Notes: generated by a model from the sequence alone, not told the origin. Positions 3,032 through 18,790 are shown, numbered from the stretch's first letter. The stretch is DNA of 64,000 nt from Bryobacterales bacterium (GCA_965237575.1 CBDEGI010000004.1:3669963-3733962), one strand, 5' to 3'. Numbers and translations: made by a program.

Positions 3032-3322
3032 TCAGAAACCGGGGTCTTTTCGCGCCCCGTGCCAAATGTGGAGAACCCTAACGAGCCCTCGCTCGCTGTC
3101 CACTTCGTAGTAGATCGGGTACGGAGTGTGGATGAGTAGCCTGACCTGCTGGTCGCGTCGTACGGACGCTCCCCGCATCGGAAAGCTTCTCAAGGTCTCA
3201 ATGTGGTCGAGAAGTGCGCCACCCACCCGCTCGGCAGCAATGGGGTTGTCATCCGCGATGCATCCCAGGATGGATTGAAGGTCGGCTATCGCTTCTTCGG
3301 TGAGGACGACGCTGAAATCCAC
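3032..3322 (-). CDS. parE: ParE/RelE-family type II toxin
   Basis: 96 aa: MDFSVVLTEEAIADLQSILGCIADDNP...LLIHTPYPIYYEV...VRVLHIWHGAR. Size and motifs are typical of ParE. Confidence 0.8.
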   Translation of the reverse strand: MDFSVVLTEEAIADLQSILGCIADDNPIAAERVGGALLDHIETLRSFPMRGASVRRDQQVRLLIHTPYPIYYEVDSERGLVRVLHIWHGARKDPGF

Positions 3323-3468
3323 TGCGGCAGCCTCTTGCGCACGTCTTCCAACGGTTGCATACGACCTGCGGTCGAGTCGTCCCGGCCGCGCTGGATCGCC
3401 GCCAGCGTTTCAGCATCCTCCTCGCCGATGCCGGGGCGTGGGGATTCAGCCTTTTCGGCTTCGCTCAT
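3286..3468 (-). CDS. Putative ParD/CopG-like antitoxin (short)
   Basis: C-terminal 60 codons of ORF 3286..3828, starting at the ATG at 3468: MSEAEKAESPRPGIGEEDAETLAAIQRGRDDSTAGRMQPLEDVRKRL. It sits directly upstream of parE and overlaps it by 37 nt. The start is uncertain. Confidence 0.5.
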   Translation of the reverse strand: MSEAEKAESPRPGIGEEDAETLAAIQRGRDDSTAGRMQPLEDVRKRLPQWISASSSPKKR

Positions 3469-3636
3469 AACCTCAGGATAGCTCAAGACAGACGGGCCAC
3501 GGTGAATCGAATCGCTGACGAGACCCGGGCTGGGCCTCTTGACAGCCTCGTGGGAGATCAACTGCGACAAGGTGTCAGTTATGATTGGGTGCGGCGTTGT
3601 GACGGAGAGAAGATCGGTGATTAGTGGAGCCATGCC

Positions 3637-4131
3637 ATGACAGACGGTGAATTCAAGTCGTATATAGAGGATCGCTACCAGCACCAGGTCGACTGGTATG
3701 ACCGCAAGGCAGGAGTTAACCAGGCGATCTATAACCGGATGCAGTGGGCCATTATCATCCTGGCGGCGGTGACCCCGGTCCTTGTGGTGTTTGTGCTCGA
3801 CAAAGATCTGCCAACGGGACTGGACCACCTGCCGGCCATCACGTCAGCCGCCGTGGCCATCTTGACGGCTGCGCTGAAGACATTCAAGTACCAAGAAAAC
3901 TGGATCAGCTACCTCACGACGTGCGAGACTCTTCGCAAGGAAAAGCACTTTCTCGATGCGAACCTGGGTGACTACCACGGAGGTTCAGAGGAGAGTAAAA
4001 GAGCGACCTTTGTCGAGCGAGTCGAGAGCCTGATTTCACGAGAAAATACCGTATGGCTAACGACCCAGAAGACCGGAGGGCGGGCCAAGCCAGAGGAAGA
4101 TCAGCCGACCGGGAAGGCGGTGGAGGGTTGA
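3637..4131 (+). CDS. SLATT / DUF4231 family 2-TM protein
   Basis: 164 aa. Motifs: YIEDRYQHQVDWYDRKAGVNQAIYNRMQW, two hydrophobic helices, KTFKYQENWISYLTTCETLRKEKHF and FVERVESLISRENTVW, all as I remember DUF4231. GGAG lies 8 nt upstream of the ATG. Confidence 0.75.
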   Translation: MTDGEFKSYIEDRYQHQVDWYDRKAGVNQAIYNRMQWAIIILAAVTPVLVVFVLDKDLPTGLDHLPAITSAAVAILTAALKTFKYQENWISYLTTCETLRKEKHFLDANLGDYHGGSEESKRATFVERVESLISRENTVWLTTQKTGGRAKPEEDQPTGKAVEG

Positions 4132-4340: not shown

Positions 4341-5714
4341 TCAGTTCGCAGCCAACACTTCGATTACCTCTTTGACAACGACATCCGCGTCGGACCGCGG
4401 ATCTTGCGCGCTGAGAAGACGGTGATGCAAGCGACCTTTGAGCTTCGGATGTGGCGCTGATCGGCCATTGGCCATGAACGGAAGGATTTTCACCTTGTTA
4501 CCACGCCTAAGTATCTCGTCCATCTCGTCGATGCAGTTCTCTGATGTCTCGTAACCTTCGGTCAGCAGCACGACGAAGTGCGTCGTCTTACTAAGCTGTT
4601 CGTTGAGTTCCCTCTTCCACTGTGCTCCACTGACATTTACGGTGTGGTACTCGTAGAGGTTGACGCCCTGTTGGCGAAGCGATTCGACGATGTTCTCAAC
4701 GAGCGCGCGGTGTGGTGGTTTGAGAGTGTGGCTGATAAAGACGAAGCATTTCGAGTAGCGCTTGGACTGGAGATACCGGCGAGCCTCTTCCCCGGCAAGG
4801 GCGGGACTGATTCTGAACATGGCGTTAGCCCGTGGCTCAATTAATTCGCGAAGCTCAATCCGATTGTTCCACCGCACAATGTCGTGCTGGTAGCCACCCG
4901 GGTGGCCCTGGAGGAGCCAAGGCAGTTCGGAATCGCCGCTTATCATGCGGATCGTAGGAACGCCCAGCCCGTGCGCAAGAGCGCAAATCTGGCGGCTCAC
5001 TAGGTCCTCCCTGCTCAGGTCCGCGATCACCAAGCCAGTGGAATGAAGAATCCGAAACACTTCGGTGTTGCTAAGATTTACGTCGCCCGATAGAACCCGC
5101 TCGTATCCAGCGTTGCCGAGGACGGTCTGCAGTAGGTCACCCAACTGGGAGGATTCAGGCCTATCGCGAGAGATTAGGCTCAGAGCCATGTTGGATGGCT
5201 CGTAGCTCATCGGCCTCAGGTGCTCAACGGCCCATTCCACCCACTGCCTGATGTTTGGCGCTATGAATGTGCGCCAGTTCCTTCTCTCTGGTAGTGGGTC
5301 GTCGACACCTCGGTCGAAAGGAATGTACACCTCACGCAGTCCCGACCTTGGTGGTGACCGAAATCGCGTTCCGCGCTCATAAAGGACAAAGCGCGGGATG
5401 TTAAGACGCTCCGCCAAACGGATTTCGAACAGGCTATAGGGCGAGCATCGTATGGATGCATCACCCGGGCCTTCTCCGGTGGCAGAATCACGCTCCGCTA
5501 GCACACACAGGAACAGATCACTGCGTCGCAGCAGCTCCTCGATGCGATTGATGTAGTAAGGCGGGTCGGCGCCAGGTTCCTCTGGCACGTCGACGAGGAG
5601 TTCGCTGGACTGGGCAATCTCCTCGCAGACCGAGAGATTCAATTCGACATCATGCGGTCGCCAACTATGGCTGAAGTAGACAGCGTATTTGTCAGCCTCT
5701 CTAGTATCCGTCAT
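4341..5714 (-). CDS. Multi-domain TIR protein (TIR-like / NDT-like Rossmann / TIR)
   Basis: Last 457 codons of ORF 4341..6143. The ATG at 5714-5712 overlaps the upstream stop as ATGA. Motifs: KYAVYFSHSW...SPYSLFEIRLA (aa 9-115), GLVIADLSREDLVSRQICALAHGLGVPTI (aa 175-265), and KCFVFISHT...VVLLTEGYETSENCIDEMDEIL (aa 322-415). Confidence 0.75.
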   Translation of the reverse strand: MTDTREADKYAVYFSHSWRPHDVELNLSVCEEIAQSSELLVDVPEEPGADPPYYINRIEELLRRSDLFLCVLAERDSATGEGPGDASIRCSPYSLFEIRLAERLNIPRFVLYERGTRFRSPPRSGLREVYIPFDRGVDDPLPERRNWRTFIAPNIRQWVEWAVEHLRPMSYEPSNMALSLISRDRPESSQLGDLLQTVLGNAGYERVLSGDVNLSNTEVFRILHSTGLVIADLSREDLVSRQICALAHGLGVPTIRMISGDSELPWLLQGHPGGYQHDIVRWNNRIELRELIEPRANAMFRISPALAGEEARRYLQSKRYSKCFVFISHTLKPPHRALVENIVESLRQQGVNLYEYHTVNVSGAQWKRELNEQLSKTTHFVVLLTEGYETSENCIDEMDEILRRGNKVKILPFMANGRSAPHPKLKGRLHHRLLSAQDPRSDADVVVKEVIEVLAAN

Positions 5715-6808
5715 GACCGCTGATTCGGGTCGACTGCCCTTAGATCGACCACATCGGAGGAAATGAGTTTTCGGAAAACCGCGTCGAGTGTCAGGCCTGC
5801 GATGAAGCCGACAGCCACACCGAACGGTACCAACCGACTGGCCTGCCTGACCAACTCGGCCTGGGAGACGATGGAGATTTGTGCCGTAATGAATAGCAAG
5901 CCCGCGACACCCCCTGCTATCAGGCCGAGTGCGGCGGTTGTAATCGTCGATCGGGATGTTAGGGGCATGGCTCCCTGGTGGAGGTCGAACACGAGTCGGA
6001 TGGTTGAGCCGGAGACGCCAGCCAGTGATGGAGAAAAGAAGAGCAACCAGAGAGCGCCCGACAAGTCTAAGCTCGAGCCCCAGGCGAGCGGGACACAGAT
6101 CATCGCCAGCAAGAACAAAACAACTGCCACGATTGCATGCCACTTGATCGATGTCTCCGCGCGGAGTTCTTCCAGCCGTCGTTGCTGCTCCTCATCAGCT
6201 GGCCGTGAAAGCTGATTCGTTAGGGTCTGGACAACCTCGTCGGCAAGATCAGATGACCAAGGCCGCCCCATCAGCGAAATCTCGTCCGCGCTGGGCAGGT
6301 CTCTTCCGGGCTGGAGGGCCTCCCAGACTTTGGCCGCCTCGCCGCCGAACGCTGCGAGAGCTACGATCGCCATTCGGTGCCCCATGGCGACGACACCGGC
6401 GATCATAGTCGAGTCCCCCCCGCCGAGAAGCAGAATCCCGTCTACTTCGCTTAGCGAATGGTAGAAGGATATCTCCCAGTCCAGGCTACGGTCAGGTCGC
6501 CAATCGAAAACCTGTTCGTGCGTCTGCTGCTCCCGAAACGCGGGTTTCTGGCCATGAAGAGGGTAGCGAACCTGAATGGAACGCGGCTTCGCCACCTGGC
6601 TGTCGATGTACCCTTCCACAATCGGAACCTCCAGAAAGTCGGCGCCACTTGAGTAAACAAGTATTCGAAATCCGGATTTCGCCAGTGCGCGCCCGAGATC
6701 CTTGGCGGCGACAGAGGCCTCGGTTGAGGTTTTCAAGTTCCCCACGATTGCGACGACGGGGGCCTCTGACTGGCGTAAGGTGGACACCCCCGAATTGTAC
6801 ACCAGCAT
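5711..6808 (-). CDS. SLOG/LOG-like Rossmann domain fused to a 4-TM C-terminal module
   Basis: 365 aa. N-terminal half: PVVAIVGN...LGRALAKSGFRILVYSSG...VDGILLLGGGDSTMIAGVVAMGHRMAIVALAAFGGEAA. Four hydrophobic helices lie at about aa 222-243, 250-272, 287-310 and 325-345. Confidence 0.7.
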   Translation of the reverse strand: MLVYNSGVSTLRQSEAPVVAIVGNLKTSTEASVAAKDLGRALAKSGFRILVYSSGADFLEVPIVEGYIDSQVAKPRSIQVRYPLHGQKPAFREQQTHEQVFDWRPDRSLDWEISFYHSLSEVDGILLLGGGDSTMIAGVVAMGHRMAIVALAAFGGEAAKVWEALQPGRDLPSADEISLMGRPWSSDLADEVVQTLTNQLSRPADEEQQRRLEELRAETSIKWHAIVAVVLFLLAMICVPLAWGSSLDLSGALWLLFFSPSLAGVSGSTIRLVFDLHQGAMPLTSRSTITTAALGLIAGGVAGLLFITAQISIVSQAELVRQASRLVPFGVAVGFIAGLTLDAVFRKLISSDVVDLRAVDPNQRS

Positions 6809-7136
6809 CTACAGAATGCCGAGGACTTACCCCGTTAGTGCTCCGAAACGAATCCTTTGCCCGAACGCCGTCAGGGCCCGTCGGCCTGGGGGGAACAGTC
6901 GCTGTTTCACTCTCGTCCCGGTCGCGCAAGGATCACACCCTCATTTACGCCGCGCGATCGCCTAACCCGGCTATCATTCGTATAGTCGGTCCGATCGTAG
7001 CGAACAGCCATGATCCGACTGGCCTTACGTACCCTTGACCTGGCGCAGGCCTGACAGACGAGTATCCGGAACGACCCAATCCAAAGCACTCATTCGGTCC
7101 GTGCGGCTCCCCTCGCAACGGCATCAGTAGAGCCCA

Positions 7137-7460
7137 ATGATCCCCAAAGAGCTGGGCAAGAAGATCCGCTTCATCCAGATCTACACCAGCAAGGCCGTGA
7201 ACGACGTGCTTGCCGGGGAGTACCACAGCGTGTTCAAAGGCCGCGGGATGGAGTTCGACGAGGTGCGCGAGTACACGCCGGGCGACGAGATCCGCACTAT
7301 CGACTGGAAGGTCACCGCCCGCGTCGGACACCCCTACGTCAAGCGCTACGTAGAGGAGCGCGAGCTGACGGTGATGTTCGTTGCCGACCTCTCTGCCTCG
7401 GGTACGTTCGGCAGCACCGAAAAGCGTAAGAACGAAGTCGCGGCGGAGTTGTGCGAAGGA
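7137..7460 (+). pseudogene. DUF58 (MoxR-associated, vWA-like) protein, N-terminal fragment of about 105 aa
   Basis: GEYHSVFKGRGMEFDEVREYTPGDEIRTIDWKVTARVGHPYVKRYVEERELTVMFVADLSASGTFGS. Family-like sequence ends at about 7455. Full-length DUF58 proteins are about 300 aa. Confidence 0.7.
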
Positions 7461-7464
7461 AGGC

Positions 7465-7686
7465 TTCGGGTTCATGCGCATCTACTCCGATCCAGCCGAC
7501 GCCGAGCCGTTTGATTACGCCGACGCGGTCGAGGACGGCGACACGGTCATGATCCCGCGTAGCTATCACCCGGTGGTGGCGTTTCCCGCCTACACGTTGA
7601 ACTACACCTGGATCCTGGCGGGCGAAGGGCGGACGTACGGCGCCTGGGCCGATGACCCCCGCTACGCCAGGATCAAGGAGGGGTAA
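7465..7686 (+). pseudogene. KduI/IolB-family (5-deoxy-glucuronate isomerase-like) C-terminal fragment
   Basis: RIYSDPADAEPFDYADAVEDGDTVMIPRSYHPVVAFPAYTLNYTWILAGEGRTYGAWADDPRYARI. Only the last 70 or so residues of the family are present, in a different frame from the DUF58 fragment. Confidence 0.5.
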
Positions 7687-16062: not shown

Positions 16063-18537
16063 TCAGTCTGATTTGGCAGGCCGGCGCAAGAGACCGAGTA
16101 CCTTGTCGATGAGCTGTGCGGTCACCTTTTCGCCGAACATCCCTGTGAAGAGCGCCAGGAAGACGAAGAGCACGATCGTCAGCAAAGACGACCAGAAGAT
16201 GTGGACCTCGAGCCCTTTGACGAGGACAAAGATCGTCAGTAGGCAGAACCCACCGACCACCAGAAACGTCTTCAGGTCGAGTTTCGGCCTTGCAGACTCT
16301 GACGACTCTATGGACGGCTTCGGCACTCCCGCCTTCTCGCGTTGTACCAAGCCGCCTTCTCTTCTTCTCTCCCGCTCAGCGTCGCGTTTCGATTTGTCTT
16401 CAATCCCATTCAGCAGATCTTGCACGCTGTACGCTTCGTCGGCGCCTTCGGGCACATAGGTGTCCGTCCCAAGCTCTTCGAGCTTGAGCAGATGCGCATA
16501 CCCCACCGTCACGCCGGGCGCATCCGGCAGCGGCACACGCTCCTCGGCACCGATCTTCGGGATGGTGGCGTGAATCCCGCCGAACGCCTCACGCACCACC
16601 GCCAGCGCGCCGCGCCGCCGCGCCGCTACCGCACCCTGAACCGAGACGTATGCCTGCCCATCTGTGCTGTTGCCCCGTACCAAGACTCTGCAACCCTCAA
16701 TGCTCAGCACGACGCCGCTACGCCAGTAGGTTTGCTTTTCCGTGAAGTGACCCTGCATCCTTACGATGAAGCGGGGAATCAAGCCGTCGGGAAGCACCTT
16801 GTAGTGGTACTGAAAGTTGAGCGCATTGGCCGTACCCCAATTCAGGTCGGGCTCGTTCGGCCGCAGCAGCTCGGGGATCAGAAGTCGGCGACCACTCGAA
16901 TCGGGAAAAGCGAAGCACAGCTCGAAGCGCTTCATCATGTCGACGATGAACTCCTGCCGCTCGGCCGGATAGCGGGTGTGGTCAGTGAGAACTTCTCCAA
17001 GCTCTGACATCTCGAGCACCGCGTCGCTCTGCACCAACCGGGCGCTATTGAGAATCTGGTAGACCCCATCGGTCACCCATTCGGGGTCGAGGACTTTCGT
17101 ATCGCGAACCCGCAACGGATTTTCGGGATCATCGAAGTTGAGGACGTTTCCCAAGTCGTGCAGGAAGCGGATCAGTTGGTTCTGGCTTGCTTCATCGTCG
17201 ACGCCGTGACGGCTGCATAGCTCCCGGTATTCCCCGATGTCGAGATAGTCCCGCTTCTGCGCTTCGGCCTCCAGCTTTTCTTTCACGCTGAAGTAGCTCG
17301 CCGGGACCTCGTCATACACGTGCGGTAAGTCCCGCACATGCTCTTCGATGGCGGTGTGCAGTTTGTCTAGGCCGGTTTCTTCGAGGCAAGAGACCTGGAA
17401 GAAGCCTTTCACGTTGGGTCCGTAGTCTTTTTGCAGCCGCGTCTCGTTCAACTGGAGCTGGTTGGGCGGCTCCCACTTGTTGGTGACGATGAGCACCGGG
17501 GAGTCGCCGCCGTAGCTCTGGATGATGCGCAACCAATAGTGAATGTTGCCTTCGTTCTCGCCTTTGCGGGCGTCGAGCACGAGCAGGTAGACGCTGCGCT
17601 TGGTCAGGAAGAACTGGTGGGTGGCATGCATGATCTCCTGCCCCCCGAAGTCCCAGATGTTGAGCCGGATGTCGCCTGCTTGCCCGTTGCCCTTGCCCGC
17701 GATCCCCCAGCGCTCGATGTTGATGCCCTCGGTCTTGGACTCGTCCGGGTCGTAAGTGCCGTGTACCAGCCGCTTGACGAGGGACGTCTTCCCCACGCCC
17801 CCTTGCCCCACCAGCAGGATCTTCGCTTCGTTGAGCGCGCGCTTCTCCTCGTGCTGCGTACGGAAGTAGTACTGTAGAATGTCAGCGGGGTTGGCGGGCT
17901 GTGCACCACCTGAAACCTCAGACTTCGTCGGGCCGAGGATCTCCGGGGATATGCCGAGGGCGTCGTTGCCTTGGAGATACAGTTGTTTGAGCTTAGGGAG
18001 CTGTGAGAGCGCCACGGGCAGGGCAGTGAGTTGGTTGCCAGAGAGGTTCAGCTCTCGCAGTTGGCCGAGCTGGCCGAACACCTCCGATAGGGAGGTGAAC
18101 TCATTCTCGAAGAGATACAGCGTCCGCAGTTGCGCGAGTTGACAAATCGAATCGGGCAGGGCTCTGAGTCGGTTTTTTCCAAGGCCCAGTTCCCGCAGCT
18201 GAGTGAGTTGGCCGATCGACTCCTGCAGAGTAGTAAAGTAGTTGCCGTAGAGTTGCAGGTGCCGTAGGTTAGTGAGTTGGCTGATCGACCCGGTCAGGTT
18301 ACTGAGTCGGTTGCTGTGGAGTAGCAGCTTCCGCAGGTTAGTGAGTCGGCCGATCGACTCGGGCAGGGCGGTGAGTTGGTTGCTGATTAGGTCCAGTTCC
18401 TGCAGTTGGGTGAGTTGGCCGATCGACTCGGGCAGCCGGGTCAGCCTGAGTTGGCTCAAGCTAAGCTTGACCGCCTCCGTCCTTGCGGCCTCCTCAATGC
18501 GCTCCTCGGCAATTCGTTCCAGGCTTTCTTCGGCCAT
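16063..18537 (-). CDS. ROCO protein: LRR - Roc GTPase - COR - C-terminal 2 TM helices
   Basis: About eight 23-aa LRRs (LTQLQELDLISNQLTALPESIGR), visible as DNA repeats at 17950-18450. P-loop LLVGQGGVGKTSLVKRL, switch II NIWDFGGQE, VTNKWE, and a long COR-like region. The C-terminus is FLVVGGFCLLTIFVLV...LLTIVLFVFLALFTGMF. Confidence 0.8.
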   Translation of the reverse strand: MAEESLERIAEERIEEAARTEAVKLSLSQLRLTRLPESIGQLTQLQELDLISNQLTALPESIGRLTNLRKLLLHSNRLSNLTGSISQLTNLRHLQLYGNYFTTLQESIGQLTQLRELGLGKNRLRALPDSICQLAQLRTLYLFENEFTSLSEVFGQLGQLRELNLSGNQLTALPVALSQLPKLKQLYLQGNDALGISPEILGPTKSEVSGGAQPANPADILQYYFRTQHEEKRALNEAKILLVGQGGVGKTSLVKRLVHGTYDPDESKTEGINIERWGIAGKGNGQAGDIRLNIWDFGGQEIMHATHQFFLTKRSVYLLVLDARKGENEGNIHYWLRIIQSYGGDSPVLIVTNKWEPPNQLQLNETRLQKDYGPNVKGFFQVSCLEETGLDKLHTAIEEHVRDLPHVYDEVPASYFSVKEKLEAEAQKRDYLDIGEYRELCSRHGVDDEASQNQLIRFLHDLGNVLNFDDPENPLRVRDTKVLDPEWVTDGVYQILNSARLVQSDAVLEMSELGEVLTDHTRYPAERQEFIVDMMKRFELCFAFPDSSGRRLLIPELLRPNEPDLNWGTANALNFQYHYKVLPDGLIPRFIVRMQGHFTEKQTYWRSGVVLSIEGCRVLVRGNSTDGQAYVSVQGAVAARRRGALAVVREAFGGIHATIPKIGAEERVPLPDAPGVTVGYAHLLKLEELGTDTYVPEGADEAYSVQDLLNGIEDKSKRDAERERRREGGLVQREKAGVPKPSIESSESARPKLDLKTFLVVGGFCLLTIFVLVKGLEVHIFWSSLLTIVLFVFLALFTGMFGEKVTAQLIDKVLGLLRRPAKSD

Positions 18538-18790
18538 AGGATCGCCCTATTCCCGCCCTTGAGAGACATTGCAACGCTATCACGGTCTTTGCGGCAAAAC
18601 AAGAGGCAAAGGCTCAGGGGCCGCTCTGGTGCGGCCCTCCTGACCGGCAGGGCCGGCGGCCGCGCCCGCCAGAAGGACGACAGACCGCGAGTCACCTCAG
18701 CCAGATTCCGTGCCCCGGCCGCGAGGGGGGCAGCGCCAACGATTCATCCCCGTTCGGAGGCCGTTTGCTACGCTCGCCGTGTCCGCCGCA

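Follow-up and report, generated by a model that had tools for sequence, protein, structure and literature searches.

A predicted SLOG and four-helix membrane protein encoded next to a TIR gene in a Bryobacterales bacterium

Described TIR-dependent systems and the place of this locus

In Thoeris systems, TIR proteins are paired with effectors of several architectures. The effector of type I is a SIR2-SLOG protein responding to 3'cADPR (ADPR, ADP-ribose; cADPR, cyclic ADPR), that of type II a TM-Macro protein (TM, transmembrane) which is activated by His-ADPR and makes a pore in the membrane, and that of type V a DUF2270 protein (ThsF) with three TM helices; type VII employs a SLATT protein (ThsH) activated by cADPR, and type IX a TIR+SLOG effector (Yirmiya et al. 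2025). Among these, TM-Macro, DUF2270 and SLATT are validated as membrane effectors switched on by TIR products (Yirmiya et al. 2025). Here, we present a computational analysis of a stretch of 64,000 nucleotides from a Bryobacterales bacterium (GCA_965237575.1 CBDEGI010000004.1:3669963-3733962), called the window below and always meant at this full length, in which a gene coding for a SLOG domain joined to four predicted TM helices (SLOG-4TM) overlaps a gene coding for a TIR protein. Positions are counted from the first nucleotide of the window.

An architecture of this kind has already been proposed. In a scan of about 600 million proteins, 29 putative Thoeris types were annotated (Yirmiya et al., bioRxiv, 3 Dec 2025, doi 10.64898/2025.12.03.692087), and one of them, 'SLOG and 4TM', is represented in Table S2 of that study by two effectors, one of Streptomyces sp. 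GKU 895, the other of Ca. Nitrospira nitrosa COMA1. In Table S1 the label reads '4TM SLOG' and forms a category apart from types III and IX. The TIR domain encoded in the window is 51% identical (E = 7e-41) to the COMA1 TIR bearing this label, and therefore the locus belongs to a predicted, not a validated, type. Between the window TIR and the Streptomyces TIR of the same label no similarity was detectable. The layout of the TIR and SLOG-4TM genes is the same as in the published type and no architectural difference was detected, the likeness of the effectors being judged through the TIR and through Nitrospira homologues, which are about 60% identical to the SLOG-4TM protein of the window. The 'SLOG and 4TM' idea is thus already in print as a prediction, with negative first tests, and the present locus adds a new member to it. 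Since the concept has been published, the value of the analysis lies in detail, namely the architecture, the conserved residues, the anatomy of the partner and a clade of orphan genes, and not in discovery.

The features of the two-gene operon are given below.

5711..6808, minus strand: SLOG-4TM gene, 365 aa (open reading frame and sequence)
6251..6763, minus strand: predicted Rossmannoid domain of the SLOG superfamily, aa ~16-186 (Foldseek, profile of diverse relatives against PDB, weak Pfam matches)
6407..6424, minus strand: glycine-rich loop G129-G130-G131-D-S133-T134, preceded by L-L-L; invariant or nearly so in both family alignments
6155..6247, minus strand: charged connecting helix, aa 188-218 (predicted secondary structure)
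6077..6148, minus strand: predicted TM helix 1, aa 221-244 (structural model, hydropathy)
5978..6064, minus strand: predicted TM helix 2, aa 249-277, amphipathic, with P260, G264, G267 and R271 (structural model, conservation)
5876..5956, minus strand: predicted TM helix 3, aa 285-311, with the glycine zipper G295/G299/G300/G303 and Q310 (structural model, conservation)
5759..5863, minus strand: predicted TM helix 4, aa 316-350, with G334, G338, T340 and position 342 (structural model, conservation)
4341..5714, minus strand: partner gene, 457 aa, three alpha/beta domains (sequence, Pfam TIR_2, structural model)
4779..5699, minus strand: alpha/beta domains that precede the TIR domain of the partner, the first at aa 6-166 and the middle one at aa 170-312 (structural model)
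4344..4763, minus strand: C-terminal TIR domain of the partner, aa 318-457 (Pfam TIR_2, 3.3e-15; profile against PDB)

Architecture of the SLOG-4TM protein and its family

Homologues of the SLOG-4TM protein are numerous. A word-indexed search returned 203 of them, 55-72% identical, all full length and all unnamed, and in an exhaustive profile search the family comprised 845 clusters at 50% identity (E <= 1e-3). These numbers confirm that the open reading frame at 5711-6808 did not arise by chance. Among the best 150 of the 845 clusters, nearly all members are 340-410 aa long and aligned end to end, which indicates an architecture fixed across a large family. The family reaches several phyla, including Nitrospirota, Acidobacteriota, Planctomycetota and Cyanobacteria. 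Two alignments, each with its profile, served in the analysis: A1 was built from close homologues and supplied the pattern for a genome scan, for which A2 was too heterogeneous; A2 was built from 106 diverse relatives (27-63% identity). The 106 sequences of A2 are the relatives to which the family frequencies below refer.

Searches of the window protein against Pfam, NCBIfam and PADLOC gave nothing significant; the only hints, both faint and confined to aa 3-50, were to DprA (E = 0.06) and ShosA (E = 0.018). PADLOC models found no meaningful match among the 106 relatives either, and the family is without a Pfam or PADLOC model. Comparisons of structure and profiles were more informative. In an AlphaFold2 (AF2) model built with 43 homologues (pLDDT, predicted local distance difference test, 87.4; pTM, predicted template-modelling score, 0.74), strands and helices alternate over aa 18-164, the strands of the alpha/beta domain being placed at aa 18-24, 48-52, 78-83, 101-106, 124-129 and 147-151. 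The best PDB match of the model in Foldseek was TM1055 (1rcu; 7e-6), followed by LOG, Moco-carrier, the SLOG domain of BcThsA with 3'cADPR (7uxs) and DprA, and every one of the top 45 matches belonged to the SLOG superfamily; a Foldseek search of a viral library returned LOG, DprA and YpsA-like SLOG proteins. The A2 profile likewise matched the LOG-family protein TM1055 in PDB (E = 8.2e-6), and the A1 profile matched 1rcu alone (E = 0.38); a single-sequence PDB search with the window protein found nothing. Pfam SLOG families appeared among the 106 relatives below threshold in every case, namely LD_cluster2 in 18 (best E ~1e-3), LDcluster4 in five and STALD in three, and none of these three matched the window protein itself. 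These results support the assignment of the N-terminal half of the 365-aa protein to Rossmannoid domains of the SLOG/LOG/DprA superfamily.

The sequence-only reading, a note made from the DNA before these searches, had proposed a LOG/SLOG Rossmann half with a loop of the GGGxxT type, fused in cis to a four-helix membrane module, and this was borne out by the sequence, the AF2 model, the structural matches and the A2 profile. In the loop, 99% of the relatives retain G129 and 100% retain G130, and conservation over G129-G130-G131-x-S133-T134 ranges from 78 to 100%. The LOG signature is PGGxGTxxE, whereas the window protein reads L128-G-G-G-D-S-T-M-I-A137. The position of the LOG catalytic Glu, aligned opposite the Glu of GGEIGTAIE in 1rcu, is occupied by Ala137, and Ala is found there in at least 90% of close relatives. 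The Pfam/NCBIfam LOG family (Lysine_decarbox) did not match the window protein at E <= 1 and was absent from the families matched by the relatives. A catalytic LOG, which the note had weighed as the contrary outcome, was rejected, the PGGxGTxxE motif not being intact and its Glu being replaced.

Ligand sites of SLOG domains are compared by the polar residue after strand 1 and by the residues after strand 3. In this family strand 1 is followed by G23 and a small or polar residue, Ser24 in 84% of members and Asn24 in the window protein. Further residues conserved family-wide are E60 (98%), F91, F101, W111, E112 (81%), Y116, S118 and G155-G156. Judged from the alignment, these residues, together with G23-S/N24, lie in loops that would form the SLOG ligand site, and the set as a whole suggests a putative pocket that is conserved yet distinct from those of LOG and ThsA; the pocket of ThsA comprises Ser288, Phe357, Arg371 and Glu403.

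The comparison with ThsA, the type I effector, is instructive on both sides. Like ThsA, the window locus has a SLOG sensor, as predicted, adjoining a TIR signal generator; BcThsA SLOG (7uxs) is among its Foldseek matches (E = 7.6e-3, probability 1.0), and the polar residue after strand 1, Ser in most of the family, corresponds to ThsA Ser288. Unlike ThsA, the protein carries a four-helix membrane bundle and no SIR2, and its SLOG domain is N-terminal, so that the domain order is reversed. Ala137 stands at the position in the LOG-Glu helix where ThsA would have Glu403, and Pfam STALD was found weakly in the three relatives already mentioned and not in the window protein. In structure as in sequence, the N-terminal domain comes closest to LOG/TM1055-type proteins (cytokinin riboside 5'-monophosphate phosphoribohydrolases), from which it differs by its degenerate motif (L-GGG-x-ST-xx-A) and by the fused membrane domain.

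Between the two halves the note had seen a charged linker. This stretch, PADEEQQRRLEELRAE, occupies aa 203-218 and falls inside a single 31-residue helix (aa 188-218) of the AF2 model; the mean number of Lys and Arg residues ahead of TM1 is 6.3 across the family. The four TM helices of the note were likewise recovered, with family-average best 19-residue hydropathy windows of 2.23, 1.79, 1.90 and 1.76 for TM1 to TM4; when the window protein is taken by itself, TM2 lies under the Kyte-Doolittle cut-off of 1.6. Since the family average of Lys plus Arg is 11.3 on the cytoplasmic side and 1.9 outside, an N-in/C-in topology is predicted. TM1 combines the top hydrophobicity with the lowest conservation (1.45 bits), and TM3 and the core of TM4 are conserved best (2.1-2.4 bits). 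The glycine-rich strings quoted in the note are present and hold the TM residues of highest conservation, G264, G267, G295, G299 and G338 (91-100% each). Besides these, P260, A263 and R271 (83%) are conserved in TM2, A298 and Q310 (93%) in TM3, and G334 and T340 in TM4, where position 342 is acidic (D or E) in 105 of the 106 relatives. Small-xxx-small motifs and glycine zippers are characteristic of helices that pack tightly or build homo-oligomeric channels. R271 and D/E342, each close to the cytoplasmic end of its helix, could form a contact used in gating or between domains. The TM3-TM4 loop varies in length, as expected of an exposed loop predicted to be periplasmic, and carries a Pro/Ala/Thr-rich insertion of about 40-50 residues in the Korobacteraceae relatives P0079 and P0098 (A1 columns ~325-375).

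Known membrane effectors share the general plan. Like those of types II (TM-Macro), V (DUF2270) and VII (SLATT), and like the TM effectors of CBASS and Pycsar, the protein combines a cytoplasmic part expected to bind a ligand with TM helices, and activation by a nucleotide followed by killing through the membrane would be predicted for it. Unlike in the type II, V and VII effectors, the sensor fold is SLOG and not Macro, DUF2270 or SLATT, and no similarity of the four-helix module to Pfam SLATT models or to the effector models of PADLOC could be detected. Types III and IX also join TIR proteins to a non-STALD SLOG effector; the type III system (van den Berg et al. 2024) is described as several TIR proteins with a DprA-type SLOG effector and the type IX effector as TIR and SLOG, neither description including a TM module, unlike the protein studied here.

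A SLOG domain also precedes the membrane part of TRPM channels, where MHR1/2 constitute the LSDAT family of SLOG domains and ADPR is bound in TRPM2. The order of the domains is the same in SLOG-4TM, and nucleotide control of permeability would be plausible in both. The specific kinship with TRPM suggested by the note was not supported. The protein has four TM helices only and not a TRP channel domain, which is unknown in bacteria; LSDAT families were missing from the 25 Pfam families with the most matches in the 106 relatives, and the alignments to TRPM8 in Foldseek were poor (target TM-score 0.14, root-mean-square deviation ~19 A). The resemblance is a functional one, and shared ancestry is not demonstrated. 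SLATT/DUF4231 profiles did not match the window protein at E <= 1 and were absent from the commonest matches of the relatives. A SLATT-like or LSDAT-like module was rejected on these profile results.

The start of the gene was considered separately. Either ATG 6808 or GTG 6787 could be used, and most homologues begin about 8-10 residues later than the protein read from ATG 6808. A sigma-70-like site, TCGGCA-17-TACAAT (6785-6822, minus strand), ends 6 nt ahead of GTG 6787, hinting that translation may start at this codon, possibly on a leaderless transcript, to give a 358-aa protein with a homologue-like N-terminus. The site is a mere hint as to the true start, because a scan for promoters and terminators found such sites no more frequently than expected by chance. 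An Rfam search of the window returned zero RNA families.

The TIR partner, a proposed mechanism and its alternatives

The TGA stop codon of the SLOG-4TM gene (5713-5711) overlaps the ATG of the partner gene (5714-5712) in the tetranucleotide ATGA at 5711-5714, from which translational coupling of the two genes is deduced. The AF2 model of the partner (pLDDT 88.2, pTM 0.86) consists of three alpha/beta domains, aa 6-166, 170-312 and 318-457. A profile of 40 partner homologues matched TIR structures of plants and bacteria in PDB, AtTIR (7e-8) and Cat1 (1.5e-7) first, then L6 and Roq1, and Foldseek likewise returned TIR domains, among them AbTir (7uxu; target TM-score 0.79). Glu397 (nt 4524-4526) is invariant in the 40 homologues and is aligned to the catalytic Glu of the C..EL motif in AtTIR and Cat1; by this alignment, the TIR domain retains the Glu of the catalytic type expected for NAD+ processing. 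The N-terminal and middle domains matched no Pfam family at E <= 5 and no PDB sequence. The first of them begins with a TIR-like YFSHSW strand and contains an invariant Glu97 in SLFEIRLAER, and its alignment with the TIR domain in hhalign, although marginal (P = 0.006), is in register. This domain may represent a cryptic second TIR-like domain.

The pairing of the two genes extends beyond the window. On every long contig examined from close relatives (Nitrospira, Acidobacteriota, Korobacteraceae, Terriglobia), this three-domain TIR gene comes next in the same orientation, either overlapping or separated by a few bases. A census of 45 distinct SLOG-4TM sequences, reached after the addition of 48 metagenome loci, placed this TIR gene directly downstream in 31 (Nitrospirota, Acidobacteriota, Gammaproteobacteria); six were uninformative owing to a contig end and eight were orphans. 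Flanks compared all-against-all revealed no further gene conserved with the pair. More distant relatives (~30% identity) are accompanied by other TIR architectures, a 173-aa TIR protein (L029) or a 545-aa TIR protein followed by an nSTAND1 NTPase (L026), and some further distant ones have no TIR. Copies of degraded appearance also occur: in L005/L011 a stop codon interrupts the TIR gene, L021 has an internal deletion, and L018 and L019 carry frameshifts in the SLOG gene, which may be errors of long-read sequencing.

Five of the orphans (L016, L065, L067, L068, L069) constitute one deep clade, and the other three in the tree (L009, L037, L040) are dispersed among TIR-linked clades. L035, the sampled sequence closest to the window protein, is likewise an orphan, and its duplicate in the tree, L034, was scored as uninformative. 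The orphan genes look intact and may have a stand-alone or differently wired function. A further relative (L023) is located on the linear plasmid NZ_CP107864.1 of Streptomyces europaeiscabiei (391234-392835), where it is followed by a gene for a 133-aa protein devoid of TIR similarity; genes for two tyrosine recombinases and for a TPR protein of 1489 aa lie beside it. The locus may encode a variant of the system in which another protein is the partner.

We consider it fairly probable that the two genes constitute a horizontally acquired, Thoeris-like TIR signalling module in which SLOG-4TM is both the sensor and the membrane effector. According to this proposal, infection would be sensed by the 457-aa partner, probably via its two N-terminal alpha/beta domains, and the C-terminal TIR domain would then turn NAD+ into a signal derived from ADP-ribose. 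This signal would be bound, but not hydrolysed, by the cytoplasmic SLOG domain of SLOG-4TM, and the rigid helix 188-218 would pass the resulting change on to the glycine-zipper bundle of four helices. Oligomerization or opening of the bundle would deprive the inner membrane of its integrity and lead to growth arrest or death of the infected cell, i.e. to abortive infection. What the analysis itself shows is the domain architecture, the missing LOG catalytic Glu, the TM topology, the overlap and conserved pairing of the genes and the retained catalytic Glu of the TIR domain; we infer signal production, ligand binding, oligomerization, membrane damage and the anti-phage function from validated analogues. 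The note had already read the protein as sensor and membrane effector in the manner of ThsA, and this reading is the best supported, though unproven and not new.

Several findings weigh against it. Both 'SLOG and 4TM' representatives were cloned in E. coli MG1655 and scored as Defense = No, and the type received no number (Yirmiya et al. 2025); the use of a heterologous host or the choice of phages may account for these negative results. About one fifth of the informative relatives (8 of 39) lack an adjacent TIR gene, and where the flanks of the deep orphan clade were examined they contain housekeeping genes (L065, L067/L068), such as those for a pilT-like ATPase, pyrimidine biosynthesis, ornithine cyclodeaminase and 6-phosphogluconolactonase, or toxin-antitoxin genes (L016). 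Among phage records and in IMG/VR there were zero relatives, and the sole plasmid relative, that of S. europaeiscabiei, is a distant one (28% identical). Finally, the strong conservation of E60 and E112 may leave room for catalysis by the SLOG domain.

One alternative is that the roles are reversed, SLOG-4TM being a membrane-anchored sensor or regulator that responds to envelope perturbation or to a nucleotide, and the TIR protein an effector depleting NAD+, as in CBASS, Pycsar and pAgo systems. TIR domains are often NADase effectors, and such cases were filtered out by Yirmiya et al. (2025); moreover, the two extra domains of the partner could take an activating input, and the catalytic Glu is invariant. 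We nevertheless regard this arrangement as unlikely. Where Thoeris types have been validated (I, II, IV, V and VII), it is the TIR protein that makes the signal and the ligand-binding partner that acts as the effector (Yirmiya et al. 2025). A conserved glycine-zipper bundle of four helices exceeds the needs of an anchor, and distant relatives are paired with the minimal 173-aa TIR, which has no regulatory domains.

A role outside defence, as a housekeeping nucleotide-gated membrane channel or regulator to which TIR genes were secondarily recruited in some lineages, is more credible for the orphan clade. Orphan copies look intact, one deep clade of them lies among housekeeping genes, and the two published tests without defence would agree with such a role. 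For the family as a whole it appears quite improbable. The window copy overlaps a TIR gene and lies in a patch of low GC content at third codon positions (GC3), beside genes for ParE and SLATT and gene remnants; the family is patchily distributed across phyla, with variable flanks, and its TPR-S, patatin, caspase and CHAT neighbours elsewhere are typical of conflict islands.

An enzymatic SLOG domain, cleaving an N-glycosidic bond of a nucleotide or of the TIR product to make, mature or end the signal, with the helices as a tether, would suit the LOG-family enzymes as nearest relatives in structure and sequence and the acidic E60 and E112, yet it has very little probability in our view, since the defining Glu of PGGxGTxxE is Ala, Pfam LOG (Lysine_decarbox) gives no match and a simple anchor does not explain the high conservation of TM2-4.

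The proposal of a sensor and membrane effector can be carried further. SLOG-4TM might be a pore gated by a TIR product outside the five bacterial TIR signals known (3'cADPR, 2'cADPR, cADPR, His-ADPR and N7-cADPR), the partner an unusual 'three-in-one' protein in which the first domain, with the invariant Glu97, serves as a cryptic second catalytic unit of TIR type, and the TIR-less orphan clade a nucleotide-gated housekeeping channel, in function the bacterial counterpart of ADPR-gated TRPM2. We put this forward as a speculation with a modest chance of being correct.

Should the sensor and membrane-effector proposal be true, an effector that targets the membrane and carries a SLOG sensor would join the Thoeris family. 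It would belong to a large and well-conserved family in environmental phyla, the four named above among them, where defence is little studied. As the putative SLOG pocket is unlike those of LOG and ThsA, the SLOG-4TM type would be a reasonable place to seek a new TIR-derived signal. It may also offer a minimal model for the gating of a membrane module by SLOG, with the same logic as the gating of TRPM2 by ADPR.

Genomic surroundings of the operon

GC content between about 3000 and 7000 is 0.57-0.59, compared with 0.63-0.67 in the surroundings, and GC3 of the SLOG-4TM and TIR genes is 0.65-0.68, compared with 0.76-0.87 in the adjoining host genes. Horizontal acquisition of the gene pair would fit these low values. 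The neighbouring features are as follows.

3032-3322, minus strand: ParE toxin gene, with a probable small antitoxin gene upstream on the same strand
3637..4131, plus strand: two-TM gene of the SLATT_1/DUF4231 family (NCBIfam SLATT_1, 6.5e-36; Pfam), convergent to the TIR gene and 210 bp from its end
7137-7686, plus strand: DUF58 fragment (125 aa, N-terminal) running into a C-terminal KduI fragment of ~70 aa, directly upstream of the operon
16066-18546, minus strand: large LRR-Roc-COR gene (ROCO-type GTPase), ~9 kb from the operon, annotated via the same gene in L006-L008

The DUF58/KduI remnants look like the scar of an island boundary. In several unrelated loci, genes for TPR-S, MAP3K_TRAF_bd (DUF4071) and patatin-type proteins recur beside the operon (L001 3770-5746, L005 3215-5842, L009 80-466, L014 8359-8931, L019 4927-5610 and L029 3308-4378), and downstream of it in L001 there are a caspase-like (Peptidase_C14) gene and a CHAT-TPR-S gene. 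Conflict islands typically have neighbours of these kinds; the window has none of them.

The SLATT neighbour could be a second effector sharing the same TIR protein or a separate gene of the island, and its membership in the system is uncertain; at most other loci a SLATT gene is not present. In the locus L019, from a Nitrospira metagenome-assembled genome, a SLATT_3 gene (4425-4976) lies immediately upstream of the operon. The stretch from ParE to SLATT (3032-3636) differs by indels among L006, L007 and L008, assemblies that are otherwise nearly identical, and across these three the SLATT gene was called as 129, 130 or 258 aa.

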